Assembly: GCA_000934665.2 (NCBI GenBank) | Contig: JYFJ02000538.1 | Location: 62,001 to 124,480 of the forward strand | DNA length: 62,480 nucleotides | DNA from: Catajapyx aquilonaris | Taxonomy: Eukaryota | Direction of reading: 5' to 3' | Part shown: positions 7,101-58,272 of the stretch, in pieces | Layout: each line of letters opens with the position of its first letter | How positions within the stretch are numbered: position 1 is the stretch's first letter | The notes under the pieces: model-generated | What the model was told of the DNA's origin: nothing | Databases searched by the model: none | What the model saw: the letters and a program-made list of their open reading frames with translations, nothing else | Program-made: the position numbers and the translations under genes

Positions 7101-10100
7101 ATTTCTCTGCATGATATCAGATGCAGTCATGCTGCTGAAATTGCTGATCTTACTTGATAATAACATGCAAACTTTTCACAAAGACCTCACCATAGTAATG
7201 CTGGCAATCATGGCTGACACTGGTTGCTCTCCATCACGGTCTACCACCGTGAAGTGTTCCCCAAAATCACAGAACACTTGACCAAACAGGCCTCTGCTAT
7301 CTGCAATTATCAGTGCTGTCTCCAATGCACCACCACCTGCTCGTATTGCCTGTGATACCCTGAGCTGCTCTTCCAAACTGCTATCAGTCAGCACTACCAC
7401 TCTGAATTTGCGAACAATCTCATCAGTGAGTTGGCCTGTGTGTGCCTTGGTTGGGACGTAGGTGTTCAGTTCTGACAGTCGCTGGCAGCAGGCCTCTGCT
7501 CTGTTACGGCCTATGTCTTCAGCCTTGAGAAAGAATTGTGAGCCCAAGTCCCGAACAGTTGCCTGGCGCTGGTCATGCAAAGTGACCGACTTGACTCCTC
7601 CGAGAATGACATTCTTTGCCACCTCCACCCCGAGGCCACCCATGCCAGAAATCAGCACATCAGAGCACGCCATACGCCGCATTGCATCATGGCCCAGCAC
7701 ATAAAGCTGCCGGGAGTACAGGCCCTCATCAATCTCCTCCGGGCCATTGGACGTGCCATTCTGAGCCATGTCCTGCATGTTGGGAAAAGAAAGCAGATTA
7801 GATGGGAAAAAGTACTGACTTAGAATTTTAGTGATGTAACATGTTTTGTCACAAATGTTCAATCTCTAAACATTTTCAAATGAATATCACAATCAATAAA
7901 CCTAAATGGAAATCTTTTAAGGTCTTCGGGGGGAAAATCAAGCACAACCAACTAAACTGCCTTGGACATGATGCCACGAAGGGCCACAAAGGGAGGAGGG
8001 GGGGGGGGGAGAGNGGGGAGAGAGAGAGAGAGAGGAGGAGAAGAGAGAGGGAGAGGGAGAGGGAGAGAGAGAGAAACATACGAGATTTTAAATATTCTCC
8101 TTGTTACTTTAGTTAAAGTAAAATCATCAAGCCCCTTAAATGGTGTGTATGAGTTTGTGTAAGATATTAATTGACTTGGTACAACTTTGTGGCAATGAAA
8201 TCCTTCAAGTCTTCTTTCCCCATTGCATGAATTTTGGCTGCTTTGCCACATCCCAAGTACAATCATCTTTGGGCAATAAATGATGTAATCATCACCTGCA
8301 TGGGAAACTGGATACTGCCGAAACTCATTTTTGTATGGTCTCATCAAATGATTTTCTAGGCACTTCTGCTTCATACCAAACCTATTCATTACAAACAATT
8401 TTCCAGGATTGGAGCATGTGATACAGACTTCAGATTAATAGGAAAGAATGCCTTCCAGGATTGATTTTGATGCTAAATGCACCATCATTTTTAGTGGAGA
8501 TCGTATCTAACACTATCAGAAGCAAAAATGAAACTCAGGTTTCTGATGTGTGAAAACCAGGGATTAAAATTTAATAATTGTCCAATTTTAAAAGTATTTA
8601 ATGGCCACTGGATGATATTGGAAGGTCTTGGAATTATTTTCAATTTTCACAATGATGATGGGGCAGGGTGTGTGTGTGAGAGAGAGTCAACATGACTGCA
8701 CATTCAAATTAAACTGCATATCAGTTAGTTAAAAATAATGAGTAATTCAAAAAACTGGGCATGACTGTGCACTTTTTAATTTCTTCTTGTCACCAGTTGA
8801 AAATTAACAAATTGCAAATTCAGGAATTTCAAGCCTTGATTTTCACAACTCATAAACCTCGGAGGGGAGGGGGAACCAAAGAGAGTTTCACTTTTACTTT
8901 TAACATTGCACTAAAAACTATGGTGCAAAGCAGCAAAATAGATCCTGGAAGGGACCATGTAAAATCTCCTTAATAACATGTCATACAAGGTGGGTTTCTT
9001 CTATCATATCTTTTTCTCCTGAGACCCAATACCCCCTGGTAAAATCCCATCCAGTTCCAAAGTAACATTAGTGCAACCACCATCCCTCGAGTTCACCAAG
9101 AGAGAACCATTAGCCTGCAACAAAGCCTCATAACCAGAACTGATTAACAGCAGCTGGACTACTCAAATATTAAGACATGCAACATTTTCATGGTTTGGCT
9201 TTGTCCCTTCCGCCTCCATGGTAACACTTGACAACTAATTTGTATGCATGGATGACTATTTAACATTTGCTGAATCACCTTCCCTTGAAGTGACCTCTAC
9301 AATAATAACGTGAACTGGCATAACAACATGCAATACATTTATTTTTAAACAGCAATGCAATGTGGCTAGCTCAGGACATAGTAGTGCTGAAACAGTCAAT
9401 TGATCTGTAACACTCTTTAAAAATTAATCCCGGCCAGAAATGGCACAGGGCAAGCAACTACCCTCACTGAGCCTCATCTTTCTGGGTCACTGCAAATCAA
9501 TGACTACTCCCTTGTACGAAATGCAGTCAGAAGGAGCGGACACTGAGAATAACCATGCCACTGTCCTCTTTTCTAATCTTTCTCCCAACACAACTCACAA
9601 AGATCCCCGAGGCACTCTCCGCCACCTCCAGCTCAATGGACACGAATGTCTTCTTGAGCCTGGTCAACGAGGACACAGCGTCTTCGCTGGCGGCGGAGAG
9701 CGGACCAGCCGGGTTCACCTCATCCATGGAGCAAACGCTACCCATGTCTCCACAACAGAAACCCCAACTGATTTTTTCAGTGCATGTGAACTGAATCGAT
9801 TGCCCCCCTTTAACTCCTCCCCACCTGTCTCATGTCAATAGTGAACAGGTGTACTAGTAGGGGGAGGGTGGTTGGGTTGGTCTGGTGATAGCAATGGAGA
9901 CTGGGCAGGAACGAGGTGGGAGAGGGAGGTGGCCGACACACGAATAGTGTCGCATGAAGTGGATCGATGCAAACATTGACCCCTTACCGTCTCCATACTG
10001 CACGGTTCCATCTGTCCTGTCGCGAAATTAAATGACCCCTGACTAAGAAAAAAAAAAGTTGCTAATAGCGCGCGCGACACAAAACCAGTGCACCACAACC

Positions 10101-13100
10101 CCACCCACCAGCGCCTACGTCACCCAGGGTTGCGTCATCGACCGGCAAACCCGATTGGTCCACGACTCAAAGCACTTTTGCCAAATTTTTCCCTCGTCCT
10201 TTGTTGCGGAGCCGTGTACGTGTGCAATACTGTATCCGCCTCGACCGCTCTCTTTTTTTTCCTCCCCACTGTACGTTGTCCTCATAACCGCGTGACTTCA
10301 CCCCCACCACCAGATCCTACCAATCCCTCCAGCCACAAAAAGACGACGCGTCACGACAGGAGAAAAAAAAAGTCCGAACAAGGAAGGCGCGCGCGCAGAA
10401 TTTTTCTGGTCCGTGTGCGAAACAAATTACAGGTGCACGAATTGGCAACGTCATGACTCTTCCAAATGCAGGTTTCGCTCGTTGCCGCCAGATACCCTCA
10501 GTTTCCAGTGAGATTTGGCGAGTGCGGGTATGGGCAACTCTGAATAGAGACGGCAGCCATTTTTGGTCCACGGGAAAGAAGAGCAGATCAATCAATGAGA
10601 ATGCCTCCATCTTTTTTCCTTTCACTAGTCAATGGTACAGTACATGGCATTTGGCAGCATAGGATAATCTGGCTGTCCGCCCCAATGCATCTACTTCTTG
10701 TCATGGTGGAGGGGGCTTGCGTTACTCCCATGACCCCAAGAGCTACGCCGACTGTAGCTTCAGCTATTCTACTGGCAGGGCCACCCACGTAGGACAGGTC
10801 TTATGGATAGGAGACCAACTAACTCTTCAATTACTCTCTCCATCTGTCCCCACCTTTGTGGCTTCTAATAGCCAGATAGGTCGTGAGATAGGCACAGTTG
10901 CTTTGGCTCATTCCTAATAAACCTAATCTGACTGATATACTCCTATAAATCCTGGGCGGAGATATGCTCCAAAACTACATGCTGCCCATTTGAAAAGAAA
11001 AGAAAAAGTGACCAAGGGGGTAACCACTCCTCAAAACAGTGTACACCAGTTCCTGGAACCAGGTGGTTCCACCCTGTTCCAAGCCAGCTCCACCCGGTTC
11101 CAAGCTGGTTCTAGGCCGGTTCCTCAGGGACCCTGTACACTGGGTTCCAAGAAGTGGTTACACCGTCAACTGTGACAACAACGAGTTTCTTTCAATTCAT
11201 TGGGAATAATCTGGACAATCTTCCAAGGAAAGGCTGACCTGCATGATCATTGCTCCTCTCAATGCATAAATGAACATGTCAGATATTATTTTCAATACTA
11301 GAATGCAACATTACCAGGAGCTTAATATTGGACGGTATTATGCAATAATTTGTCAACCAGCAAAAATTTCAAAATTGAGCTAAGCCCAGAAACATACCTA
11401 AAGAATCCCACCTCATTCTGTTAAAATCACGCTGATGAAATCCGCATACTTTTGCCATATAAGACTGAAAAGAACACTGAATTAAATTCACAGGTATACT
11501 CATACACTCGTATGAATCATGTGGGTTGAGTCATTATTGCATAACACCGTCCAATTATGCTGCATGAATGGTGCAGCACATTACTTCAAAGTAATACTTT
11601 TCCTTGAAATTAACACTATTTTCACCTTAAAATTCCTCGAATACAGTCAAGCACTGTAGCATGGTACTACCCAAATAAGTCTTGAATATTTCTAGCATCA
11701 ACATGAGCTTATTCAAAATGTAGTGTCACTGCCACATCTGAGTGATACTCAAGTAACCTGAGAAAACAAACCACTGATAAATGGCAACTCCACCTGTAAT
11801 CAGTGATCAAGCAACTTATGGTTTGCTAAACTCAGTGCCACATACGCCACACAAAACGTGTCTACAAGAAACCACATCAATGCTGAGGAACTCCCAAACA
11901 TGTACAACCACCTAAAGCAGGTGCAGGATCAAGTTGGAGAAAGCTTGAAGAGTGCACTTTTAAGGTTGGGGGAAGATGATGCTTTTCTCTGGTGGGGGAT
12001 ACACCGTGTCACAGGCAGGGCAAACCTTGGCCTTGTTCAAAAAAAGCAACTTCGCAAGGAATGAGCAGAGGGAGGGGGGGTAAGAATCTCTACAGTTGCT
12101 AGGGACAGTGTTGGCAAAACCTGAGCAGCAAGAGCTTTTGTGCACCAATAGCAAAAGTGGCATGGAGGGTGGTACACTGTATCAGTTGGTAGCACTATCA
12201 AAACGTATCCAAATGCTGACGGATAATATCTTAAAATACTCTCCATGCCACTTGGCACCAAATTCTAGGTCATAATCCCAGGAAGCGTGAAATTCACATA
12301 TATTTGAAATCAGGGTGTTCCACATCTTATGATGCAATCCTTCATTCCCAATATAAAAAAGCATCTTTAGTTGATGGAATATGTTGAAACTTTGCCAGTC
12401 TCTACATGCATTAGTTACAAAATTTAAATAATATTTAACAATGGACACCTACAAGGTTAAGTTCTGCTATTTTCAGAAGGGATTGTACATAACATTAAAA
12501 AGTGAAAGTCAGTTTTTCCCTGTCAATAGCTGGAGCTATGACAATCTGGTTTGTTCACCAACATGAGCTCAATATTTAAAACCATTCACCTTCCAAACAT
12601 ATGAAGCAATTTGATGGTTCTCAGTTTGGTAAAATCACAACTTTCGTGTCTTAATTTCTTGCTTTCAAATCCCCTCCAGCCCAAGATTGCTGGAAGTTTG
12701 GGCATTATCTCATCGAGTAAGGAGCGAACTCTAAAGCTTTGTATAGAAGCACTTAAAAAACAAACAAATGAAATCAACTAAGACCTATTACTTATGGCAA
12801 AACCAAACCTTTGGGGCGACCTTTCAGCTATGACATCATAGGACTGCTCTGCCATCAGGTGCAAGAAGAGCATAACTCAAAAACTAAGAAAGGTGAAAGC
12901 TTCCCATGCATGCCCAGCACTAATCCCCCCTGACTCGGAGGGGATTAGTGCAGGGCATGCATGCGACTTTCACCCTTACTAGTATTTGAGTTACGGTCTT
13001 CTTGCATCTAATGGCAGTGCTCAACAGCTCATTTTTAATATTCCATGCATATTATACCGAGCAGAAATGTGGTGCAGACATCCTGATCTGGGCAGAAACA

Positions 13101-16001
13101 GGGGGAAAGGCCAACAGAGAAGCTAAGCAACTGCAAGTGATAATTACTCTGAATACAACCTCCAAAAATCATGGCCTCACCATTTTTGTAGTTGCTGGGA
13201 TAGTGTTGATCCGGTGACTCTTTTATTTATGCCAGTTGCCCTGCCCAGTGACACGACTCAAAATTAGGGATGCTAAAATGAATGGTCCAGCTAATTGAAA
13301 GCTGTATTCCACTGGTTATAATGTTCTTAGGGCATTTACTAATATCATACGCACTATAATTGCCGATAAAAATTTTATCTTGATGACTTGAGGAAAGATC
13401 AGTGCATCAATTTCACTTTGAGGAACAGATATATTACTCCAGAAATTCAATTACTCCAGTTAACTACAAACTATATTGTGTAACTAGCTGGTGGATGCCA
13501 ACTCAAATATAAATTATTGTCAATTATGTGTAAGCATCAGAGTGGCTGAAAAACTGTGTACCAAGACTTTAATATGGGAATAACTAAAACAACACTAAAG
13601 TTATGAAAATAAGTAGAAACTAATTCCCAAATATTGCTCTTTTTACTTGGACTATAGACTAAGTTAGCTAAAATTTGAAATCGACCACCAACTCTGTGAT
13701 GTGCATCAAAAATTATTTAACTTTGTCTGAAGGCATATTTCAGTTCATCTACTATGATGATTCCTTGTGGATCTCGAAAAATGCTGGCTCACATTTTGGA
13801 CAAAGATTAACTCTGTCTTGCTCTTTACCACAAACATGTGCTAATTAATACTGTACATATGCTTCATATTACATGCCTCTAAGAGTACCTGAACGATATA
13901 TTCAAGGATCACCTTTGTTGTCTTTGATAATATGCAATGTAAGTTGTTCCTGAGAATATGATACCTCAAGTGAAATTGTTTTCCTACCCGATTTTAAGTT
14001 GCGACAAATGGGTTTGAAAACTGCACATTTGCAACTTTTCTTGTTTTCAAATGGCTGGAAAAGGTGCCAAGACCTTCCAGAATTTTGATGTTAATTTTAA
14101 TGGCAATGGTAAATGAGGTCAAATTTTTTGAGTCAAGTTGTTCACTAATGCTCACATTTAATAAATCGATGGTTGTACAGGGATGTTGTAGGCCTAATCA
14201 TACTTTAAATGGCTACTTGAATGATGTCACATCCCTGTGCAAGTATTGATTTTATTGAATGCAAGTTTTAGTGAACAAACTGACGCAAGAATTGGACATC
14301 ATTTAGCTTTGCCATTAAAATTAAAATTTTGGAAGGTTCCTAACGCCTTTTGTAGCCAACCAAAAATCAACAATTCACACCTTTCAAATCCCTTTTTCAC
14401 ACCTCAAGGTGCAGGTTGGGCAAAAATGATTTTCACACTTTAGTCTCCTCTCATTTGAAATAATTTCCACTAAAAATTATCATGTAACACAACACAGATC
14501 CCTCAACAAATCCTTCGTCAACAAGAATACACTTTGAGTACGTTGCTAAACTCAGCTGCTGCAGAGCTACCGCATGCCGCAGCGAAACTAAAGAGTAACA
14601 ATAAAATAACAATAATATGGTTATTTTATTGTTACTCTTTTGTTTCACTGTGCCAGTGGCTGAGCTTAGCAACGTACTCTGACATAATGTCCCCAAATGT
14701 GAGCAAAAAAAAAATCATACTATTTTACAAAAGCAACTGATGGTCATTTGGTCCCATGCTGCAGGTAAGGTTACTTCATCCCTTCAACATAATTATGAAA
14801 CACCCTGTAATTATGTTACTATTTGAGTGATGTTGGGCGCATCAACAGTCACACAGTCCTAATATTAACAAGGACATTAATTTTGAAAATGGCAGTCACT
14901 TTGGAATGCACAAATTCCAAGCAATAAGTCAGGGTCACTGCGCTATCATGTGCTTATAATATCCAATTCCTTCCAATATTACGTGAGAGTTCAACATTGC
15001 ACATGTGCAGTATTCCCCAAACAAAAACTTCAATATTCAAGGAGCAAACAACGCCCAAGTCCTTCCCTCGTCGTCATGTTACACCTTGTTTTACCGAGTC
15101 AGCTAAATCATAAACTACAGCATTCATATCTGGAATGCGAACTACCTGATGAATGCAAGAATGCCTCCCACAGCAGCATCCAAACAGACTTGACATCCTA
15201 ACTATCTCGTAAACACCCAGACGACATCACCAGTGTTGTCATTGCTAAGTGAGATACAAAAACAATGGTTACAAACGTGATGGCACTCCCTGTCCCTCCA
15301 TCCAGAATAGCTGATGCCATTGTGTTATGTGCAACAAGAATTCATCCGACAACTGGGGCTTGAGCCAAACAAAAGCTCCACAATAGTCAAATTTCCTCTA
15401 CACCCTGCAATCCAAGGTACTTTCAAAGCAATATTATTCCAGGCATTTTAACATGCTTTTCTTATGGGAGTGTGTCCACAATAATAATGCGGCCATAGTA
15501 CTTGTCCAGGGAAGCAAGATTGCGCCAGATCCTGGATACAGCAGAAACTTGTCAATGCACAATTTTTATTTGGTTCCAGCCAATGATTTTTAATGTACAT
15601 GTTGGTTACACTTGCTCATTACTGAACATTTGCTCGAAACAGACCGATACCACCACGTTTCAGCATCGGTTTTGCTTTGGGTACACGCTCATGCACTGGC
15701 GCTTAATTATTGGGGTTGTCTAATGTAGCAGCCGAGCAGCACAGGGATCAAATGACCACAGACGCTGCATCCCATCCATACTGCTCTCATATGGAGACAA
15801 CGACTCAAGGTACCGCACCAACTTATTGACTGCACGTTGCTACTTGTCATGGCAGCAGAAGGGCATACGTACGGTGTTGGATGTGGAAACGGAGTTAGCT
15901 TCGGCTGCGGCTGCACAGTTCCCTGAGGACAATTTCCGCTTCTTGCTCGGGGGTGATGTCGGACTGTCGGCCGGCTCTTCACGCACTTCAGCACTTGACA
16001 T
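1194..16001 (-). CDS. UBA1: Ubiquitin-activating enzyme E1 (about 1085 aa with the NLS first exon)
   Basis: Exons 15873-16001, 7191-7772, 6050-6694, 3753-4155, 2925-3457, 2363-2552, 1449-2061 and 1194-1356 are all GT-AG with consistent phases. Motifs: [39 protein letters not shown], catalytic [26 protein letters not shown]-terminal DVEVPYVRY. Confidence 0.98.
4372..4643. mobile_element. Non-autonomous pogo/Tigger-type element resembling mammalian MER2/Tigger3
   Basis: TA|CAGAGGACCCTCCGT ... ACCGAGGGACCTCTA|TA imperfect TIRs with TA target duplication. The internal sequence matches my recollection of the MER2 consensus. Confidence 0.75.
7991..8074. repeat. G/GA-rich simple repeat spanning an N
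   Basis: Poly-G and (GA)n tract containing an ambiguous base. Confidence 0.9.
9599..9745 (-). CDS. UBA1: Putative alternative UBA1 first coding exon (MGSVCS..., 49 aa)
   Basis: gacATGG Kozak context, 49 open codons and a consensus gtgagt donor at phase 0, in frame with the acceptor at 7772 (GAC ATG GCT CAG). Confidence 0.6.
9988..10011 (-). CDS. UBA1: Putative alternative UBA1 first coding exon (MEPCSMET)
   Basis: ATG...ACG|gtaagg donor at phase 0, directly downstream of a CpG-rich, promoter-like region (about 10050-10450). Confidence 0.45.
10697..10822 (+). mobile_element. RTE-clade (BovB-like) retrotransposon/SINE 5' fragment
   Basis: CTTGTCATGGTGGAGGGGGCTTGCGTTACTC...GAGCTACGCCG...GCAGGGCCACCCA...GGACAGGTC resembles the conserved RTE/BovB 5' UTR block (from recall). 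Confidence 0.6.
11038..11165. mobile_element. Short MITE-like inverted repeat
   Basis: GTGTACACCAGTTCCTGGAACC ... GGTTCCAAGAAGTGGTTACAC imperfect terminal inverted repeats with internal GGTTCC repeats. Confidence 0.5.
12845..13022. repeat. About 180-bp fold-back palindrome (MITE-like) in UBA1 intron 1
   Basis: The left arm TGCCATCAGGTGCAAGAAGAGCATAACTCAAA...CATGCATGCCCAGCACTAATCCCC pairs with GGGGATTAGTGCAGGGCATGCATG...TTTGAGTTACGGTCTTCTTGCATCTAATGGCA. Confidence 0.85.
14536..14679. repeat. About 145-bp fold-back palindrome (MITE-like)
   Basis: GAGTACGTTGCTAAACTCAGC / GCTGAGCTTAGCAACGTACTC outer arms, with an inner stem AAAGAGTAACAATAAAATAAC / GTTATTTTATTGTTACTCTTT. Confidence 0.85.
15873..16001 (-). 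CDS. UBA1: UBA1 first coding exon A (nuclear, UBA1a-type N-terminus)
   Basis: Encodes [43 protein letters not shown], followed by a phase-0 gtacgt donor. SPPSKKRK matches the UBA1a NLS. A polypyrimidine-AG acceptor lies at 16020. Too short for the ORF track. Confidence 0.9.
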
Positions 16002-16019
16002 CTACTCGGAAACAAAGAC

Positions 16020-16560
16020 CTTGAGGAAAAAAAAAGGAACACGAATTGATCTTGTTCGACTGTTCTAAACTTCGGCAGCAGCGGATCTCCCGAGACCGTC
16101 GTCTTCTCGCCACCAAAAAACTGCTGTCCGTCGGAATACTGGGATGAAAGGCAGGGGTGTGCGTGGGGGCGTCCGGCGATGCCCGTAGCAGCTGTCTGCT
16201 GTACCGGTGCACGCGGTAAAGAGGGAGAGTCGCCCTGCAGTTGCGTAGCTCGAACGAAGTGTCTCCGTCCGAGTCTCGCCGGCAACCCAAAATGGCGTCT
16301 CACTTCACTGTTCCAAACTCAGACTCGCCCCTGCTCGCCCATTGGTCGGAAGGGCTCCTCATGATGAGGAGGGGAGGGGTGGGGAGGGGAGGCGAGAGAG
16401 GGAGAGAGGGGTGGGGGAGGGGGGGGGAAATGCNAGGCGAGAGAGGGAGAGAGGGGTGGGGGAGGGGGGGGGAAATGCGCAATGCATCATGGGAAAAGTT
16501 GAACAAGTGACAGATGGAATGCGATATGCGCATGCGCGATTGGAGTGAAGCCAGCCCGCG
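16020..16560 (-). promoter_or_regulatory. UBA1 distal promoter / 5' UTR region
   Basis: CpG-rich stretch upstream of the NLS exon with a YY1-like CAAAATGGCG (about 16288-16297), CCAAT boxes (ATTGG on + at about 16341 and 16539) and a G-rich tract. Confidence 0.5.
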
Positions 16561-16598
16561 CATTTTCAATGTTTTCAATTTCAGTTTGACAACTTCAG

Positions 16599-16891
16599 TA
16601 GGGGTAAGGTAACTCATGCGTTTGGGGAGGTGGCTTGTGTCCTTGGCAACTATAATTAGCCACGCCTCCTGTACCAGTCGACCAATCAGGATTCGATTTC
16701 AAAGGAGATGGGCGCTATGTTCTAAAACCTCAAAATGCGATGAGTTTGTTTACACTTACACAATTATTGGTAACTAAGCAGGGGAGAAATATTTCCCCAC
16801 CATTCGTTGAACTCTGCAGGGGGCTGGGCTAATTATATGGTTGCCAAGGACACAAGCCACCTCCCAAAAAGCATGAGTTATCTTAACCCTA
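16599..16891. mobile_element. MITE with about 70-bp TIRs upstream of the UBA1 promoter
   Basis: TAGGGGTAAGGTAACTCATGC...GAGGTGGCTTGTGTCCTTGGCAAC versus GTTGCCAAGGACACAAGCCACCTC...GCATGAGTTATCTTAACCCTA. Flanks CAACTTCAG / CAACTACTG may be a decayed 9-bp TSD (Mutator-like). Confidence 0.8.
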
Positions 16892-17732
16892 CAACTACTG
16901 TACTTCAGGCAATATTAGTGATAATTAAAATGACCAACGATCATTCATTTGACCACACCATTAACAAGAATATATTACTGTGGAACCTCGTACTTCGAAC
17001 GACCCTAATTTCAAACATTCCATCTTGTTCAATCACTAAATTAGGATACGGAGTTTGAACGAGGCTTCTAATTTCAACCTGTGCACGCAGTGACAAAAAA
17101 ATGCACTCATTGCGTATGTAAACATCTCTTGCGTGCACATAGCACTAGCTGTGAAAGCATCTCTTGTGTTAGGCTAGTGTGTTGTCAGTCTTCTTTTTCG
17201 CTTTATTGACATTATTAACATAGAGTAGAACTCCGATATTATCAGACTCATCAGTTAGGGTCCCAGATCATATGAATTCACTTTCCATTATAACCTAATG
17301 AGGAAAATTGATTCAGAAATAAAACAATTCAGAATTCAAATGGCCTGGAATAAATTAAGTTCGAAGCACCAGGTCCCATTGTAGATATTTAACCAATTCA
17401 TCATTGTCATTAATTTACCAAACCATTAACATGAACAATCAGGAGATGAGACCCGGAATTAGCTGAAAAAATGTACCTTCCAAATTATATGTCCAGAATT
17501 CCCCACGCAGTTGTATGAGAATGAACATAACAAGTAAAGGGACACCAGCTATTTATTTCGGTGATAAATAATTATGAAGCACTCCAAAAAAACAAAATAA
17601 TGACTTCATTATTCATCCATGGGGGTAGTAAATTTCAATGTAGTCATTAGCACATCCACAGACTTGCCTTTAATAGCAATGAAAAAAGAAAATTCTGCAA
17701 ATACAGATATTGTTAACATAAATTCCACCCCC

Positions 17733-20700
17733 TCAGGCCACGTGCTCTGGATTCTTTCTGAGAATGACGAAACCCTCCATGATTGGAGAAAGTGGTATAT
17801 ATTCCTCGGTTGCCAACTCAGCTCTTTCACCGTATGCCAGCAGCACAGGGGTTGTGTATGTCTGGAACCCGGTAATGGTCTTTGGCTTCCCTGCTTGCCC
17901 AACCACATCCACAGCCTGAAAAGGCAGGTAACATTGGCAGAACAACACTGCAATACGTTCATGAACCCATACTGTACTCACCTGTCCAACACGAACAGAC
18001 ACTGGTTGCGGTGTCAGATTCTCATCAAAGGTGACAAGCATGCGGGGTTGCATGGCTGCTGCCAACATGTAGAGTAGATAATGAGATCGACCCAGAATAA
18101 CTGGAAGAAGACGAAGAACATATTATGCAGGTTGCCGTGAGTAAAAATTACACCTACTGCATGAAATTGACAACAATTATTCCTTTGTGATTCAAAACTA
18201 CACCAAACCACTAATTCTGCTTACTGTTTTTGACATCAAGAAAGGCGACGAGAGTGGCTAGCAACCCTGCAACAGCCACAGGTGACATTAGTTGACGATC
18301 AGAGTGGAAGGGGCAGAGGGTAAGCGTCCCTTTTCCCAGATGGGTAAGCCCTTGGGCTACTCGGACAAGGAAAAGATTGTTGGCATCCTTAGCATGATAC
18401 TGGGCCAACTGTCGGAGCATGGCAGCCAGGCGAGCATTGTTAGTGCCAGCAGAAACCAGGCCCATGGCAAATATGGCGTTGTGGGCCACCTCAGGGTCTG
18501 AGTCGTGAGAAAACTTGCTCAGGGCATCTAGAATGTTCAGCTTAGGGTTGGAGACAGACAAGAGTCCCAAAGCAAGTGGGACAGCCCTGCGAATCACAGG
18601 CTCACAGTAGCGGAGCTGCAGAAAAGGGGATTAACTTCAACTTTCTTCTCAAAATAGAGCTGGATTCTGAAAGAATTTCATTGACTTTCTGACTCACCAG
18701 GTGTCCAAATGTCCTGAAGGCCATCTCAGCGCCTATGTCCTCACCCATGGCAATCAAAGCAATCCCCAGCACTGCTATAGCCTGCTGAGAAGACAGGTCT
18801 GGGTTCTCATCAGACTTCTTTTCCTTTTCACCAGCATCCTTCTTGTCCTTCTTGTCCTCCTTCTTCTCATCCTTTGAACAGAAAAACCATGCATACCCCA
18901 ACATCCAATACGTCTTAATAAATTTATATTACCTTCCTATCTTTGTTCCCTTTCTCGGGTGGTTCATAATGTTCACTGCAGATGTGTAGGAGATGTTGCA
19001 CCTTCAAAACATTACCAGTGCCAGCATAGGCGCACACTTCAACCATAGTGCAAGCCATAGATCGGAATGGCTCAGGCACCACTTCCAGGGCAGCCATAAC
19101 AGTCTCGATAGCATCCTGTTTGCCTAGATAGCACAAACCCAACCCAAGAGGCAAGAAACGTGCATAGGTGTCTTTCAAGTCAGCTTCAGATCGTTCCATC
19201 AACATCTGCAGCACAGCAGAGGTAACGCTCCCACGGCAGGAACCAACAGAGATCATTCCACATGCCAGGGAAGCCATCCCCATCACCTCCATGGTGGACT
19301 TGGGATCAGATAAAACTGGAATCAGGAGTTTGAGAAGGTCTTCTCGATCGGATCCAGCATAAGCCAGTCCCAAGCCAACTATTGATCCAATTCGCATTGT
19401 GTTGGTCTCATGAAGGATGTAATCAGAGAGCAGTGCCTTGGCAGGATCACATTCATTGCGCACCCCACAATTGACAATCCCGCAAGCCAGGAGGGCACCA
19501 GCCTTGATATGATCTTCAGACGAATACAGGTATTTGTCAATCTGAGTCAGACCACCATCCACATCCCACAACAATATCAGACCCAAGGAAGCTGTTGCAC
19601 TCAGCATACCTGAAAATTTGCCACATGTCAGAGTCAATTTCAGGGTTGGATCACACATGGAGAAAATTTTCGTTCAACCTCTGCTACGCTAATAAACCAC
19701 ATAACTGCATTTTGCAGGACGAGTGGGTGTAATTTTCGTGCTAGTTACTGCTAAGTTAGCAGTAACTAGCAGTGGGACGAAAGTTCCACCCAGTATTGCT
19801 AAAAATGAAACTGAATCCCAGCAGCAACTAAATCAGCCTGACTGCTATTATTGCTACTGCTGGTACTGGTGTATCAGGCTGACCAATAAAATCAGTTACC
19901 GTGTTCTTTGTTTTTGTAGAGCCACTTGTTCCCATCTTCCATGAGGAGCTTGTCCTTTCCAAATGCAGCGTTGACAAATCCATTGACAAAGCTGGCGGCA
20001 AGATTCTGGCGAGCTGAATCCACCTGCCCCCCTCCAAATGCAGGGCGTGTGTTTTCCAGATGGGATTTGTACACATCTTCTGGAGTCTTTGGCTCCATTA
20101 TGTCCAACTGCACAACATAAAAATATTAATCACTAAGATGCAATCCAAATCAACTGTTATGACTCATAACACTGATAGATGACATTTTGAAAGCACCGAA
20201 AAATATCAGCCAAGTTGAAAGTACAAGGGCGATTTAAATACATTACCAAACTCCCCTGGGTTTACACCCCCTCCCAGTTAGCGAGTTATTTCTCCGTAAC
20301 TCGTACAAAACGTATGGATCAGTGAGAACCTCAGCGTAAAAACGCGCGTTAACATGTAAGAAATGAAACACAAGTGCCAATAGTTTGATTAGGTTCATAA
20401 AAGTCCAAGGGGAAACCACTCCTCCCGAGAGTCCAGAAGAAACGGCGCTACCAATGGGCACGGAACCATCTGAGCTGGACATTCAATGACAGGAAGGTGA
20501 TTTGGTCTGGCGAATAACCATTTGACGTGCTGTATAGAAACATCAGTCGCAGAGTAATTCGGCAGAAGGGTGAAGGACTCCGCAATGACTTGCGAACTGG
20601 GGGGTGGTTTCCCCTTTGACTTGTACGACGTAAACCCATGTCCTTCAGCCTCTGCATGGTTATTTTTGCCGAAAATACACGCCCCAGGCATTCCTGCCAG

Positions 20701-23368
20701 AATGCTGCAGCCTCAGCAAAAGTCCCTGGTCTGTTTTTCCTGACAATCCCGCACAGCATATGGTCTTCTCATGCTGTTGTCGACTCTAGTGGCCCCGAAC
20801 TTTTCTTCCGCTCTGGTGGTGTAATCCTGCTTTAGGAACATGCATACTGTAGACTCATGAACCAAACAGTTCCCGGCCTGTCTGCCAAAGAGGAACACCA
20901 TCCAGAAGCTTTTTGATGATCTCCCTTAGTGCAACAGGCAACCCTCTTCTCATTATGTTTCTTCGCTGTGATGAGTTGTGGGTGGTGGTTTCTCCTGCCT
21001 CTTGTAGCTAAGATGGGCTCAGAATCATGGGAGTTACATTTGCTTACAACGACAAATGGACACACAGCACTGATACCATGTGACGGGTGTGTGCGTGTAA
21101 TATCACTTCCCTTGTGTATTGGGTGGCCTATCATATTCGTGTATGAACCGAATCAAACCATTGGCACATGTGTTCCATTTCTTACATGTTAATCCATGTT
21201 TTTACACAGACGTTATCACTGACCCGTACGGTTCGTACGAGTTACACCGCAAAAACTCGCGAACTGGGGATGCGCGTGTACCCAGAGATTTGGGTAAGGT
21301 AAATGCATTTCGACATGATTCCTAATTAATTCAGGATTTGCAAGAAACATAAGTCTTTGGATGACTCTCATAAATCCTGCACCATCTGCAGTTGCTTAAG
21401 TAACTATAATTATAATAATTAGCAGGTACACTGACCTCTCGACCCAAGTTCAAGAAGTGCTGGTTCAGCTGAGTATTGGACATGATCTCCTTCAGGTCCT
21501 CACTGTCATCCTCACCATCAGCCAACTGCAGCACAATCTGTTGCCTGCCCAGCATAAATGCAAGCTGCTTCTGCATCAACCTGAAGTACAAAAGAAAGTC
21601 ACAATAACGATATCCCCATGCAACAACGTGAATAATTTTTCATGAGAACCAAACATTCAAAATACACACATGTCAGTGCAACTTCCAAATATTTCATGGA
21701 TGGTCTTAGGATTGTTGAGATGCAGGGCCAATCTTAGAGCCTGTGGGTGCTGCCCAAATCTCACAAAAATGCTGAGGGCAGTCTTCAGCAGAGTGGTGTT
21801 TTCTGGGTCGGGCACATATGGCACGCAACTAGTGAGATACAGACAGACCCGCTGGTAAGCACTCTCATCCACGTAACGCTCCAGCAGGTCCAAGCGCTCA
21901 ATCTCCATCAGCAGGTCACAAGCCTCAGCCTCTGCATTGTGGGCCATGTTGTGTGGAACAATCTCTTGGGCTAGCTTGACCAGCCGCTCCCTGGCTTCGG
22001 TGTTGGAAGAATCAGTCTCTGCCCATTCCTGTGCTGCTTCACCTGCCAGGTGGCGGACATATTCATGTCCCCAGTCTCCAACTTCCCCCAGCTGACCCAA
22101 GAGGCGGTACTTGAGGCATTCACGGGCCTCAGACATGGTCATGGCCAAGACAGAAATAATATCTGCGCAGTATTTCTTTGTGGGAATGTCGGTTATACGT
22201 TCATAGCAGGCCTTAATGGTGTCATAATGAGGGCGAAGAAATTTCAAAGGTTTGGGCACGGAGGTCATAGATGTGGTGGAGGCACGAATCTGATTGCGGA
22301 GTGCCTCTAGGGTGGCCATGTACAGACTTGTGTCATCCTCCTGGTGGGAGAGACAAATAAATTATGACATTTGCGCTTTAACAATTTTTACACACATACA
22401 ATTTTTGTCTGTAATGCTTTGTAATTTTTCACATGCAGCAAACTCATAACAATTCAGAAGAAAGCATTGTAGAGAAAAATGTGGACAATTTTACAGACAT
22501 AATCTCCTTTACTGTCAGAACCATTTGGGTGCAATGAAACATGCACTGTACTCCCGATATTACCAGTGCTAATTAATGCGAGTGTGTGCCCGGATGATAG
22601 GAAAACATGGATAATACGAAAGTGGTCCTAGATACTGTAAAAATGAGCTATTCACAGGTTTTTAAACAGACAACTGTACATATTGTATGCTGATTTAAAT
22701 AAGGTTTAATCAAAATAACAAAACACGCCCTAGATTTTTAATTCGTCTTCCGGAAAAAGTCTGCTTTGTATTTCTTTGTTTGAGACATATTGGCATTTTT
22801 CGCACTTTTTCCCCGAATGCATGGATAATCCACACGGGATAATCGGGTGTACTGTGTAATACAAATTTAGATGCTTTGTGATGATACTACTGATTGAAAC
22901 TATTCACTCCAATTTCTGCTGACTCAGACTGGCCCTCCCTACACAGAACATGCCCATTATGGCCTGCATATTCAAATGCAACTTAACCGAGGTTCATGTG
23001 CACCAAACTTTAATCACATGGCCATTGCAGTGACTTAATTGTAATTAATTCCATCCCTGATCAATACTCACCGAGAGTCTCTCCACAAGCATTTTGAGCT
23101 CATCCTGCAGCTGCTTGTCCTCTTCGGACTGCAGAAGATAAAAGAGACACGTTTAGGCTTATTGTATACCGATGCATGTGGCAGGCCATCGACACTTTGT
23201 CACACACTTTGATTCCTTTCATAGCTTTAAAACTTAACATGCCAATTCCACCAGAGATATTCTGCTCACCAGTTCGGCCTCCTTCTCCTCCTCATTCTTC
23301 TTGTCCTTCTTGTCCTTCTTCTCCTTGGGAGCCGTTGACTCAGCCTTATTCTTCCCGTCCGCCATCAT
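17733..23368 (-). CDS. PSMD2: 26S proteasome non-ATPase regulatory subunit 2 (Rpn1), about 929 aa
   Basis: Exons 23270-23368, 23072-23128, 21670-22340, 21436-21580, 19900-20107, 18933-19609, 18698-18871, 18225-18615 and 17733-18100. Motifs: [75 protein letters not shown]. In the last exon, a 48-nt gtgagt...ttcag segment (about 17933-17980) interrupts VGQ|AVD and is probably an additional short intron, which would give about 913 aa. Confidence 0.97.
19723..19793. repeat. About 70-bp hairpin / mini-MITE in a PSMD2 intron
   Basis: Perfect 16-bp inverted repeat TGCTAGTTACTGCTAA-G-TTAGCAGTAACTAGCA, flanked by TGGGTGTAATTTTCGT / ACGAAAGTTCCACCCA. Confidence 0.8.
20241..21299 (-). mobile_element. 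Internally deleted Tc1-family transposon in a PSMD2 intron
   Basis: TA|CATTACC ... GGTAAGG|TA ends with about 160-bp imperfect TIRs (20241-20400 vs 21140-21299). The minus strand reads [59 protein letters not shown], the Tc1 GRPR-linker/second HTH. No DDE domain is recognisable. Confidence 0.85.
22544..22856. mobile_element. Tigger/pogo-like MITE, copy 1
   Basis: CACTGTACTCCCGAT ... GGATAATCGGGTGTACTGTG termini. Co-linear with the copy at 45931-46247. Confidence 0.8.
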
Positions 23369-23932
23369 GCAATGTAGAGGTTGCCGGAGAAATTTTCTTT
23401 TTCTTTTTTTTCTTCTCCGAACAAAATGCTTGGGACCCGTTCGGTTCGCTGTATGGAACAGTGCGAAGTGACTATTGAAATTTTGATTTTCACCGTGACG
23501 CATCATTTTATAATAGCCCACTGCTTGTGACTCATACTTAGATATACATGAGTTTTGATGATTATAATAGACTTAATGGAGTAAAATATAAACTGTTAAT
23601 TGACTGCTCCCTGGTGAGCATTTACGGTAGTTACGTGCGGGCTTTACAAATAATCCTATGATGCTTGAAAAATGCTTGAAAATACCATTTCAGCATGCGG
23701 GATTCCACAACCTATTTGACTGTAAAATAAAAGTATGATGGGCTTACACTGCTGCAGCTAACAAATATGCAGTGAATCAATGCTGATTAAGGTATAGAAA
23801 TCATTTGTCAAAAATGAGGTGTATATATGATCATCCAGCAGCAAACATTTGGGACAATGGCAATTCACTGAAGATGTTCACCAGCTATTCATTGAATATT
23901 CATGCATAACCGGGGAAGCCAGACATGTTTGA

Positions 23933-24755: not shown

Positions 24756-27700
24756 TTATGCTGTAAAACAATAATTGTGGTCTGAAGGTTCAGCATTAAC
24801 ATTCAGTTTGCCTTCCTGACAGACAACTAATTCTTTGAGGACATTCTCTTTTGTATTTGGTTTCTGCATCCCTAAATCACGATGCTTATTCCTTGATTTC
24901 ACTGACTGGTAATGCGTTTTTTTATCTAGATGTGGACTTCTCTGCAGCCTTGCTTTCTTACTTGGGGGTTCCTCATTGGCTTCTCCTAACACAGGGATGT
25001 CTGAAGAAGAACTTGGAAATGCAATGGTCATGAGAGAATCTAGGCCCATCCTGATTTTGAGCAATGCTTCCAGAGGCTGTTCCTTCAAGGAACCAAGAAT
25101 CGCATTCATGTGCGACCTAATAAGGTAGTCCTCCTCTTCTTTCTCTTCCTGCTCGACCAATGGATGTAGATTTCTCTCCACGTCTACCTCGCAATCTGTG
25201 TCCAGGAAAGTAGAAAGCCATTTTTCTTTCTGTTGATGAAGACTCTTCCTTATGTTGTATATGGTCTTCTTTTTTATAATGTTCTTGACATTACGTATTC
25301 CCCTTTGGCAAGAAATTTTCTCTCTCATCTCATTCAGAATCCTCGTCAATGGCACACCTTGGTGAATTTTACCTGTAGAGGAAAATTAACAATAGATATT
25401 GGTGCGAATTGATGGATTATCACCTCTTGTGTGCATTAAAACTGCACTCTCTATTATTCCACATTAGGTTCTGGGCTATCTAATACGTTCTCTTTGACAA
25501 AAGGGCTAATCGCCCATGGCGAAATAAAATTATTGTTATTATTAATACCTTCTCTTGGATTTTTTAAATGCCCACACAAAGCATGAATAAATAAAGTGAA
25601 TGCTTTTAATATTTACTAATTAAGGCTTTTCTCATCCTGGTTGAGCCACATGGCCTGTTAGGACAGTAGAGTCACATATCAAGCATTATTCTTTCCAGTA
25701 TACTTACGAGCTATTTCTATGCGCTCTTGGGCTGACAGTCTCAAGTAGGCGAGGTTATTTTTGTGTCCAACATGTGTGCGATAATATTGCACAATAATTT
25801 TTCCATCTGAAAACTCCTTAATATCCATTGATGCAGGGCAGGTTCCTCCCATTTTGCATGAACCTTGGGACCTGATGCGCCTCTTCCCATGACTGTGACT
25901 TAAATATGCACCTGATCGATGACATGAATAACGGTATTTCTTGAAGTTTTTTTGAACTGCACAGCCTTTCGATTTTGAGAAAGATGCTAGAGATTTTACT
26001 TCCTCCTGGTCCTTCCACTTCTGGAACTCTGTAAAATATAGCAAAAACATCACTGACACTATTGTATAATGCACCTGTGCACAGAGTACCGAACATAAAA
26101 AAAGATCCTTAAAAATCCGGCAACACATTGTACTACCCATTTCTTACCTTCCACTGATGGGAACTCCAACGTATCCATCTCACAAGTCACTTTATGTGAG
26201 AATAAGAGGTGATTCCTTAGATCCACATTGGACGGAACAGGCAAGTTGCACCCATCCAATGGGCATTTAATAGCTGACATTTTACGAGCTGCTGGTGGAA
26301 CCAGATATCGCAAGTTCACATGGTTGCATGGATTATTACCACAATTAAATGGGCAGAGAGAAAGCTTCTTGACAAGATGTGCTGTGTTGCCTGGACCTGC
26401 ATTAGCTTCCCCTTCTCCTTCCACACACTCTGGAAAATGGTTTTTTTTTAAATTAAAATTTATTCAAGGCAAATTTTCTGTATATTATTGTTGCATTATG
26501 CTTGACAATCCTTTTTTGTCTGCCATTAATCAATTCATATCCTTTATTATAGATACTACGCATTTGTGTTTTCTGTACATCTGCTATCTCTCTCACAGCG
26601 CATGCTATATTCTTATGTGATTTGTCAAGTTTTATTCCACACTCTAACTACCTTACCGCTGGCTGGTGGTAATGATGATACTGGATTTGTGCTCATATTT
26701 GGTAGTGATTCCTTCACCATCTTGTGCTTCTCATGTATGTGCATGTTTAAGGTCTTGCGATAGCCATATATCTTCCCACAAACAGGGCATGTCCATCTGG
26801 CAGAGGGTACAGCTTTTCCTACGCTGGTAGCAATATTCCCCTCTCCCCCTAGAAGCTCTGTGAAAAAGCTTAAATTGTCCATTTGGCCCATGCCCATACT
26901 TGGTGGCACTTCCCCTATGACCCTGTGCTTCATAGCCACATGCTTGTTTAAGGCTTTCTTACAGCCATAATTCCTCCCACAAACAGAGCATGTCATAAGG
27001 ACAGGAGGTGCAGGTTCATTCCTGTGGGTTTCACTCTTCTCTCTTTCGAGATCCTCTGGAGGGGAAAAAATTAAATTAATATCATGAGATGTTCAAATAA
27101 TAAATTAGGCCTACCCTATGACCCATGCTTACTTGTTGGTGGGGTTGGTTGTGAATGGACATTTAGCATACTTCTTGCTGGTAGTATCGGTCTAAACTGT
27201 GGGGTGCTTGCCATTTTCACTGCTTTGACCATCAACTTGTGTGACGTAGACATGTAGTGGCTGGTTAAAGTGTTTGGACCATTAAAAGTCTTATCGCAAA
27301 TGTCACAATTGTAAGTATTTTTCGCACCCAGTGTTGCATTGCCAGTGCTGGGTACAACTGGATTTGCCACCATCAAAACTGCTGGAAAAGCTACCCGAAA
27401 AATGCATCAAATTAAACTTTTCTATAATCAGCCTGCAATCCATGCTCTTACATTGAAGCACAGGAACAATCGCCAGCAGTTGGTCGGCTCCCACTTGTTG
27501 AGGCGTCTCCAGCTCTATCCCATGAACTTTGGTCAGGTGATAGCTTCGGCTGTGGTTAGAACAAAACATCCTTTTGCATATCGGGCAGCAGAACTGCTCC
27601 TTAGGTCTTGGTAACTTGCTAGAATCATCTTTCCCCTCTCCGTCTGCAGGAAGAATAACAACCTATCTAACTACCTCAATGCTGCAAGACACATGCAGTT

Positions 27701-29834: not shown

Positions 29835-32800
29835 TCAGCAATGAAGAAAGTCACCAGAGAGGCCAAAAGGAGACTCTTCACTCTCTACCCTAGCCAAATA
29901 GACTCGAGGAACACGCCCCACTTGACCCCTCTTTCGGGCAGTCCACCAACTGTCTCCTTCTTGGCGAGCAGTCACAGTCACCTTCTCTCCCCGATTCAGA
30001 CACAGCTGTCCAGGGGCCAGCCCCACAAATGACCAACGAGCTACGTAGAGTCCATCAGATTGTGACAGCATCTCATCTTCTTCATCTGTAATGTCAAAAA
30101 TACCTGTTGTATAACGCACTCTGCTTCAATCATGTCACGTGTAACATTTCTAACAAATAACTATCTGCAGGTCACACTCCCTCATACCTTTGGTGGTAAA
30201 AGCCATGCATCCATCCTGCATGCAAGACTGGAGATTTAAGCCCTACCATCCACCCAGTTGTTTTCATCCACTGATTCGTACATTTCTTCTGCTTCGTCCT
30301 CCACTTTTTTGAGGGAATGTGACCTAACTGGTGGTAGTGGTCGAGGTGGATGTGGTGGTGGTGGTAACGCTGCTGCTTGTCTGTTTGTGTCCATTCTTGC
30401 AGGCAATGATGGTGGGGGTGTTTTCAAAGGTGGAGGCACAGAGTAGTTGGATGGAGGATTGGTTGCTGGTGATTTGCCTTTGTTCATTTGTTGAATGTGT
30501 TTGATGAGACCTTGGACAAGTGTTCCCTGTGCACTGGCACTGTGGAGGAAGCTGTTTCGCTTGGGCTGATCTGCCTGCTCCTGAAATGAACGCAAGTGCA
30601 GAGTGAGCTAATGGATAGATTAACATCAATCATTGTCTTTAAATAAAAACAACAACAAATGTGATGATAATGGACAAATCTGTATGAACTGTTAAAATAT
30701 GGGTCATTATTTTCATATTCCTTTTAAATTTCTTAACATTACTGAGAATTGTTTTTGCTTGTTGCATCACTGTTTCTACCTCTTTAAATGATATAATTGC
30801 AAGATGGTATGTTATGCACCGGAAATGATAAATTGACTTACGTCATCACTATTGTGGAACCCCCTAAAAATGCGTTCTTTGGAAAATGGTGGTGGAACAT
30901 CGTAGTTGACTGGTGCTGATTTTTTCCCATTGGTGGCAGCCGCATCATCGTACACATCGTCATTTGAATTTTCAGTGGTGAAGCATGTGTCGTCATACAA
31001 TTCCTCATTGTCCACTTCATCTGCAGGTTTTTCTTCTACATCATTGTATAATACTTCCTCTTCAGTAACTGTTGCTAGTGTTCCATCTGCGTCGTTATAA
31101 AACTCTTCTGGTTCAGCATGAGTTTCTCCAGCTTGTCCATCCACATCATTATAAAAGTCTTCCCCATCCTGACTATTGAATACTATGGCATCGTCATAAA
31201 TATCCTCTTCGTCAGGTCCTGCCTCCTGACCTTCTGCGTCATTGTATATTCCTTGAGGAGCATTTTCGGGATCTTCGTATATAAGTTGTTCCTCCTCCTC
31301 TGAAACATGGTTCGCATACGAACCGCAAGCATTGGTTGCCTTAATGGTAGTCTCGACGTCGTTGTAAAAGTCCGAAGGAGGCGGATGTACCGGTCTGAGA
31401 GGCGGAAGAGGTGGCGGTTCATCCCGAGGACGAAGTGGAGGAATAAGTGCTGGGGCCACTGGCGACGTTGGGGATTCAGGATCGTTATAAATATCTTCCT
31501 CCACTTCTGGGGACATAGATTCATACGGTCCTGGTTGTTCGGTTGTCGACGGCGGAGGACGTGGTGGTGGAGGTGGTGACGGCGTCGCGCTTTTGGCAGA
31601 CCGTGGCGGCGGCTGAAGAGTTATTGTTGACGGTGGTGGTGGAGGAGGCCACGAAGATCCTGAGGACCCTGCGTCGTCATACGTCTCCTCTGGGGTTTCC
31701 GGCTGAAGATGTGGATGGCTTGCGACTTTTGTGGCCGCCGTCTCGATGGCGCTCATCCACTGCTCCTTGTCTTTGCGTGTGCGTGCTACAAACTGCAACG
31801 ATTATTAAGTAAGCTTTACAACAGTCATTTGGGCGTGTAAAAGAGCGTGACCGCCGAGGGAAGTGCATTCACCTGATAGCTAGGCTTCCCCGGGCAGACA
31901 ATCTCAAATGCCATGTCGAGCTTCTTCGAATCTTTGACCTCTTCTGGGGCAGGACGAGCCTCGTATCCTGTGAGGTCAATCGACTTTTGGGGCTTGGGAT
32001 CCCTGGAAAAGCGACAATAACAATGAGTAACTGTTCACAAATTCCTATATGCTCGTACTGCAGGAAATATATAATCCAGTTAGTGACATTTTGGTATGTG
32101 GAGTATCATCAACATGTACAAAATTTAAAAATAGGTCAAAACGACTTCCGAGCGACAAACCACAGTGACTCACCTGTCTTTGCCATAGAGATGGAGGAAT
32201 GTCCCCCGAAGTCCTCCCCAGCATTTCCGGAACTTAAATGGAAATATCCTAGGAGTCTTCCTTTCCAGGGGACCACATTTGGCACCGCTCGACGCCAGCT
32301 CCTTAGCCCCTGGCACACCCAGGCTGTCAACCAGCAGGGTGTCCTCGGAGTTGTTCCGATGCAGCGAATCTCTTTCGTCGGCGTCGATTTCGCTCGGAGG
32401 CGCGGACTTTCCAGAAAAGGGAACAAACCTCATGGTTTTTGGGAGGTCGCAGATATTAGCCGGAACACTCTCGATGCCGTCGCCTTCGAAGGGCTCGTAC
32501 AAGTACTGTTCCTCTTCAGCTTGCTTGTTGTTGATATATGGAGGCGGAAGAGGTGGAGGATTCGGTGGAGGACGAATGTCCACAGGCGATATCACAACCT
32601 GTTGCATATCAACGTATGGTTGTCCACCAACATCTCTGGCCAGGGCTGAAGACAACTGTTGCAGGAGACGGTCTCGACGCTTCAGTGTCGCCTCTGACAA
32701 CTTCTCGGTGGCCAAGGTCTCCGATAAAAATTTCTGGACATCTGTGAAGAGTACACTGCCTATATACAGGGTGTTACGTAATAATACCAACAATGATGAT

Positions 32801-50158: not shown

Positions 50159-58272
<8,114 letters not shown>

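Follow-up and report, generated by a model that had tools for sequence, protein, structure and literature searches.

The window analysed here is a stretch of 62,480 nucleotides from Catajapyx aquilonaris (GenBank assembly GCA_000934665.2, contig JYFJ02000538.1, positions 62,001 to 124,480), and it carries on its minus strand a gene for the ubiquitin-activating enzyme E1, UBA1. Within the first intron of this gene lies an open segment of 49 codons (9745–9599) that can be joined in frame to the second coding exon, and that an initial annotation of the window had proposed as the start of a lipid-modified, membrane-anchored form of E1. The gene is of an invertebrate, arthropod-like type with few large exons, about eight of them coding, and is not the vertebrate-type UBA1 implied by that annotation's wording of 'exon 2'. 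A protein search with exon 2 returned 2795 matches at E ≤ 1e-10. The best 120 of these 2795, to which all statements below on listed UBA1 proteins refer, are E1 enzymes of about 1040–1070 residues, the named entries among them being arthropod 'ubiquitin-like modifier-activating enzyme 1'; the top identity to exon 2, among these 120 proteins and the metagenome contigs, is 79–83%. With P0003 as the query, tblastn recovered seven collinear UBA1 coding blocks, running from 7781 to 1224 and covering residues 33–1043 of P0003, and Pfam identified the full set of E1 domains in minus-strand frames between 1448 and 7865: ThiF (in three exon frames), E1_FCCH, E1_4HB, UBA_E1_SCCH and E1_UFD. Because the seven collinear blocks carry E1 domains, we regard the gene as a compact invertebrate UBA1 rather than the 26-exon vertebrate gene.

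The peptide encoded by the canonical first coding exon fits the MSSAEV...PP.KKRK... N-termini that precede D-MA.NG in most of the listed arthropod UBA1 proteins, and includes a basic motif of the nuclear localization signal (NLS) type. The acceptor of exon 2 reads ...ttttcccaacatgcag, followed from 7772 by GAC ATG GCT CAG AAT GGC, and would serve the candidate first exon as well as the canonical one. Intron 1 extends from 15872 to 7773 (8.1 kb), and since the canonical first coding exon occupies 16001–15873, the candidate at 9745–9599 is intronic. Use of the candidate exon would mean that the NLS exon is lost. Some of the annotated arthropod UBA1 forms among the best 120 matches take the MA.NG of exon 2 as their N-terminus, which makes loss of the NLS exon through alternative 5′ ends an established pattern.

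The candidate reads from ATG GGT AGC to ATC TTT and encodes 49 amino acids without a stop codon, its ATG being set in the context gagacATGG, with a purine at −3 and a G at +4. The donor GTGAGT follows the final TTT directly, and joining TTT/GTGAGT to GAC ATG GCT at 7772 keeps the reading frame in phase 0. The stop-to-stop frame that holds the candidate comprises 100 codons (9829–9530) and contains no in-frame ATG 5′ of 9745. Inspection of the sequence 5′ of the candidate ATG revealed no pyrimidine-rich YAG acceptor, and a first exon therefore fits better than an internal one. The anatomy given in the initial annotation, that is, the ATG frame, the GTGAGT donor, the phase-0 join at 7772 and the intronic position, is borne out by sequence and translation, as is the MG..S motif, present in the translation as MGSVCS.

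To examine the coding character of the segment, we built codon tables from 15 proven coding stretches within the window and from the UBA1 introns. The coding-versus-intron score of the candidate, 17.7, lies above that of 81% of 359 real-exon windows and above all 518 open intronic windows, the maximum of which is 7.8. With a composition-matched score that compares in-frame with off-frame codon usage, the proposed frame reached +8.1 and the other five frames ranged from −3.7 to −27.3. The strongest independent signal is three-base periodicity: a χ2 as high as the candidate's 23.3 arose in 0.1% of 5000 open-frame shuffles that preserved composition and in 3% of real-exon windows, and in none of the 1547 open intronic windows of 147 nt. 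The underlying base bias is pronounced, with A at 27% of first and 4% of third codon positions, and G at 43%, 16% and 43% of positions 1, 2 and 3, respectively. We also applied a wider null of 689 open intron and spacer windows, reduced to 676 by removal of the 13 that overlap the candidate; four of the 676 attain the candidate's χ2, and at least one of these (23249–23395) resembles an unannotated first exon of RPN1. The codon log-probability of the candidate under the window's own coding model gave z = 2.74 (p = 0.002 against shuffles), within the range of real exons (2.0–4.7, 5th to 95th percentiles).

These signals are confined to the proposed exon. The coding score per codon is −0.24 for the 28 open codons that lead up to the ATG, rises to +0.36 within the candidate and drops to −0.08 past the donor, and the G+C content at third codon positions (GC3) changes in step at the same borders, from 0.46 to 0.78 to 0.52, with a peak of 60% GC at 9600–9750. 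Apart from this donor, the sense strand of intron 1 contains no GTRAGT.

The promoter context of the segment was assessed from CpG content. An island at 9990–10420 sits 250–670 nt 5′ of the candidate, and its composition and motifs point to a putative internal promoter. The ratio of observed to expected CpG (CpG o/e) is 0.48 for the window and 0.44 for UBA1 exon 2, and 0.97 and 0.93 for the canonical promoter and canonical first exon; the island, at 1.26, resembles the canonical promoter in this respect, and within the candidate it is 0.85, as against 0.43 and 0.31 in its flanks. These ratios, low overall and in exon 2 and about 1 at promoters, suggest a genome with gene-body DNA methylation. 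We consider the island to be probably an alternative promoter for UBA1 transcripts that lack the NLS, irrespective of any use of the candidate exon. Between the island and the ATG lie two TCAGTT motifs that resemble TCAGTY, the arthropod initiator consensus; their A residues are 47 and 24 nt 5′ of the ATG, the motifs being 23 nt apart, and a leader beginning at the second would be 24 nt long and free of upstream ATGs. TCAGTY has 66 matches in the 62-kb window, 28 of them on the minus strand, and we treat the pair of motifs as a lead only to possible start sites. Periodicity, sharp boundaries, the CpG island and the initiator-like motifs together make an alternative first exon, as the initial annotation proposed, probable on balance; its second proposal, a lipid anchor, is drawn from the short motif of Gly2, Cys5 and Ser6. 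For the fuller claim, that 9745–9599 would be a first coding exon of UBA1 that is used alternatively, is probably specific to the lineage, takes the place of the NLS and brings in an acylation motif, we judge the chances to be even. The features on which this assessment draws are collected in Table 1.

Table 1. Elements of UBA1 and of its first intron in the window.
Feature	Position	Strand	Basis
UBA1 coding blocks	7781-7194, 6697-6053, 4155-3742, 3455-2889, 2570-2382, 2038-1451, 1355-1224	-	tblastn with P0003
UBA1 second coding exon (DMAQNG..., first half of ThiF)	7191-7772 (3′ end approximate)	-	sequence, tblastn, Pfam
Canonical first coding exon (43 residues, NLS-type KKRK, donor ACC/GTACGT, phase 0)	15873-16001	-	pattern search
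Candidate alternative first coding exon (ATG + 48 codons, MGSVCS...SGIF)	9599-9745	-	translation, codon score, periodicity
5′ splice donor of the candidate (GTGAGT, phase 0, directly after TTT)	9593-9598	-	sequence
Internal CpG island, promoter-like (CCAAT box, TGACG motifs, GCGCGCGC run)	9990-10420		CpG o/e 1.26
Two TCAGTT initiator-like motifs (possible start sites)	9789-9794 and 9766-9771	-	motif scan
Rival short first exon (ATG + 7 codons, MEPCSMET, donor ACG/GTAAGG)	9988-10011	-	phase 0 with 7772

The observations gathered from here to the discussion of the lipid motif include those that weigh against a functional, membrane-targeting exon, and many of them would be accommodated by another explanation: a non-functional open frame in the GC-rich shore of the intronic CpG island, with a donor and an MG..S motif that coincide by chance and would have been noticed because striking N-termini were being sought. 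On this explanation the active promoter would use the exon ending at 9988, or a non-coding leader, and yield an NLS-less E1 that begins at or just before MAQNG. We regard it as a real possibility, held with less confidence than the exon itself. Several open frames of 94–160 codons occur in intron 1, where a length of about 100 codons is nothing unusual, and the openness of the candidate is therefore uninformative by itself. When intron 1 was shuffled locally 500 times, 5.4% of the products contained an open stretch of at least 49 codons that began with an in-frame ATG and led into a GTRAGT. Since the real intron holds fewer GTRAGT sites than the shuffles (one per strand, where 5.1 would be expected), this figure probably overstates the true chance, and that the candidate's donor is the sole sense-strand GTRAGT in 8.1 kb is itself a point against coincidence. 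We considered whether the depletion of GTRAGT might be a signal of selection and rejected this, as it is equal on both strands (1 and 1) and compositional. Of the nine minus-strand GTRAGT sites below 17000, three match mapped exon ends and six, the candidate's included, do not.

Base composition lends the same explanation further weight. The GC content of the candidate (60%, compared with about 42%) explains much of its coding-versus-intron score, and once composition is matched it ranks third among the peaks of intron 1, two intronic segments scoring equal or higher. The codon z of 2.74 is likewise reached by 3.3% of windows in the wider null, for which the 95th percentile is 2.57. A GC3 of 0.78 is not reached in any of the 1762 49-codon windows from real exons (mean 0.54, maximum 0.755), so that the codon usage of the candidate is unlike that of proven exons; the value is compatible with a young or foreign exon, or with a GC-rich non-coding patch. 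What a chance frame would not be expected to provide is periodicity of a strength so rare among open non-coding windows and shuffles, or a coding score that switches between negative and positive precisely where the ATG and the donor lie, or the rise in CpG o/e within the segment relative to both flanks. The rival phase-0 exon MEPCSMET falls within the CpG island and is nearer to it than the candidate, and the short arthropod isoforms that begin at MA.NG are of the kind that such an exon, or a non-coding leader, would generate. The resemblance between MEPCSMET and MGSVCSMDE was examined as a possible duplication and dismissed, the local DNA alignment score being 18 against a shuffle mean of 17.9.

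Searches for relatives of the 49-residue peptide are also in keeping with a non-functional frame. Word-index searches of a protein library of 5.8 billion clusters found no relative, and an exhaustive HMMER scan against 1.84 billion representatives produced a single match, P0123 (E 1e-7, seven stretches), which we rejected as a homologue because it is a tandem-repeat, Ser/Pro-rich protein whose score is inflated by its repeats. In metagenome contigs, 597 pattern matches to the peptide were obtained and none was confirmed. Exon 2 yielded 95 relatives in the same contigs, of which 80 loci were kept, all at most 79% identical, and when the peptide was run by tblastn against these 80 distant UBA1 loci, the lowest E was 4.5. 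A Met-Gly start is absent from all 120 arthropod UBA1 N-termini listed. We regard these blanks as weak, because the best relative of exon 2 itself is just 79–83% identical. The MSSAEV...KKRK N-terminus, best hits that fall in insects and the CpG pattern of the window together agree with an arthropod that has no near relatives in the libraries searched.

The lipid-attachment motif was compared with the PROSITE-type pattern for N-myristoyltransferase (NMT), G-{EDRKHPFYW}-x(2)-[STAGCN]-{P}. MGSVCSM fits this pattern at every position, with Gly2, an allowed Ser3, Ser6 and a residue other than Pro at position 7, and Cys5 lies no more than about six residues from the Gly, as in dually acylated anchors. 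N-myristoylation and palmitoylation of the candidate peptide are plausible on these grounds. The NMT pattern is a short one that occurs widely and also matches many non-substrates, and the peptide is acidic (seven D/E, three K/R) with no basic cluster. Because of this acidity, myristate alone would not hold the peptide on membranes, and we infer that stable membrane binding would need a second acyl group. The portions of the full-text literature that our search reached, general reviews only, contain no report of a lipidated, myristoylated or membrane-anchored E1.

If the candidate exon is used as we propose, transcription would start from a putative intron 1 promoter in the CpG island, at or near the TCAGTT sites at 9792 and 9769, and the GTGAGT donor would be spliced to the shared acceptor at 7772. 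Translation from the ATG at 9745 would then produce an E1 in which the 43-residue NLS N-terminus (MSSAEV...PPSKKRK...) is exchanged for an acidic peptide of 49 residues with MGSVCS at its start. Once the initiator Met had been cleaved off, Gly2 could be myristoylated, with Ser6 fitting the NMT pattern, and Cys5 could be palmitoylated, so that the isoform would be kept out of the nucleus and possibly held at membranes. We infer each of these steps (transcription, splicing to 7772, translation from 9745 and both lipid modifications) from the nucleotide sequence. The complete scheme, in which an internal promoter would give rise to a third kind of E1 isoform by swapping the NLS peptide for a myristoylated, Cys5-palmitoylated anchor, is tentative, and we think it somewhat unlikely.

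A further explanation, to our minds improbable, grants that the segment is transcribed and coding-like and denies that it leads to a stable lipid-anchored E1. The segment might then be the first exon of a short nested transcript, a captured coding remnant, or an exon that regulates UBA1 output, either through upstream ATGs or by being spliced out of frame behind the canonical exon or the one ending at 9988, with decay as the result. A GC3 of 0.78, so unlike that of proven exons, is what would be expected of foreign or recent sequence. Transcripts starting in the CpG island would place ATGs at 10011, 9832 and 9785 ahead of the candidate ATG, and joining an upstream phase-0 exon to the AG sites just 5′ of that ATG would bring in a stop within about 10 codons. 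Several results speak against this explanation. On the minus strand between 9598 and 7773, no second comparably periodic coding-like segment occurs. Pfam detected no family inside intron 1 among 115 open frames of at least 90 codons, a repeat search of 7700–16700 found no repeat or transposon copy of the candidate segment within the window, and Rfam at the gathering threshold returned no match between 7000 and 17000. This explanation also leaves the phase-0 fit of the segment to exon 2 unaccounted for.

Other genes and features of the window were identified alongside UBA1. The neighbouring gene, on the minus strand at 17600–23410, encodes the proteasome subunit RPN1/PSMD2 (Pfam RPN1_RPN2_N, PC_rep and RPN1_C), and a strongly periodic frame at 23249–23410 (...KKDKKDKK...) resembles its first coding exon. 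A gene for a ubiquitin-specific protease (USP) with DUSP and UCH domains occupies 52690–58100 on the plus strand, so that three genes of the ubiquitin-proteasome system (UBA1, RPN1 and a USP) fall within 60 kb. Fragments of other genes comprise C2H2 zinc fingers (26628–27406), an SH3 domain (29838–30125), a CUPID/FERM_C region that is FRMD4-like (39352–40523) and a WD40 open frame of 320 codons (60609–61568), all on the minus strand. One family of G/GA-rich low-complexity repeats is represented by two tracts, at 7992–8091, about 200 nt 5′ of the exon-2 acceptor, and at 16368–16473, just 5′ of the canonical promoter. The presence of N bases in each points to some uncertainty in the assembly.

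E1 is generally seen as a soluble enzyme of nucleus and cytosol, and spatial control of ubiquitination is credited to the E2 and E3 enzymes. Were the proposed isoform to exist, a lipid-anchored E1 would mean that the first step of the ubiquitin cascade can be localized too, with activation tethered to a membrane surface, and local ubiquitin activation could be dissected through mutants of Gly2 and Cys5 (G2A and C5S). Even without lipidation, alternative first exons that exchange the NLS for another targeting peptide would parallel the logic of UBA1a and UBA1b. The case is that of one species, and it has been made by computation alone.

Abstracts on vertebrate UBA1 describe UBA1b as being translated from the second methionine (Met41) and mention no forms beyond the nuclear Met1 and the cytoplasmic Met41 one. 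The arrangement proposed here resembles UBA1a and UBA1b in that one E1 body is given alternative N-termini that set its localization, the long form bearing a basic NLS (here PPSKKRK). It differs in that the vertebrate short form arises from a downstream start codon and simply loses the NLS, whereas the candidate exon would add 49 new residues with an acylation motif. The short MA.NG isoforms of arthropods, including Nicrophorus vespilloides 'isoform X2' (P0118), P0030 and P0093, resemble it in using the same exon-2 acceptor, just before D/x-MA.NG, and in dropping the NLS exon through an alternative 5′ end; unlike the candidate, they add no new coding sequence. Dually acylated N-termini, with myristoyl-Gly2 and a nearby palmitoyl-Cys, are characteristic of Src-family kinases and of G-alpha-i/o, and within the ubiquitin system the RING E3 ligases RNF11 and ZNRF1/2 are N-myristoylated, so that lipid anchors are known there at the level of E3. 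Like these proteins, the candidate peptide starts with Met-Gly, has a small uncharged third residue and a Ser as its sixth, and carries a Cys among its first six residues. The likeness is one of motif class, since there is no sequence homology between them and the candidate, which further differs in being acidic and in having no basic cluster.

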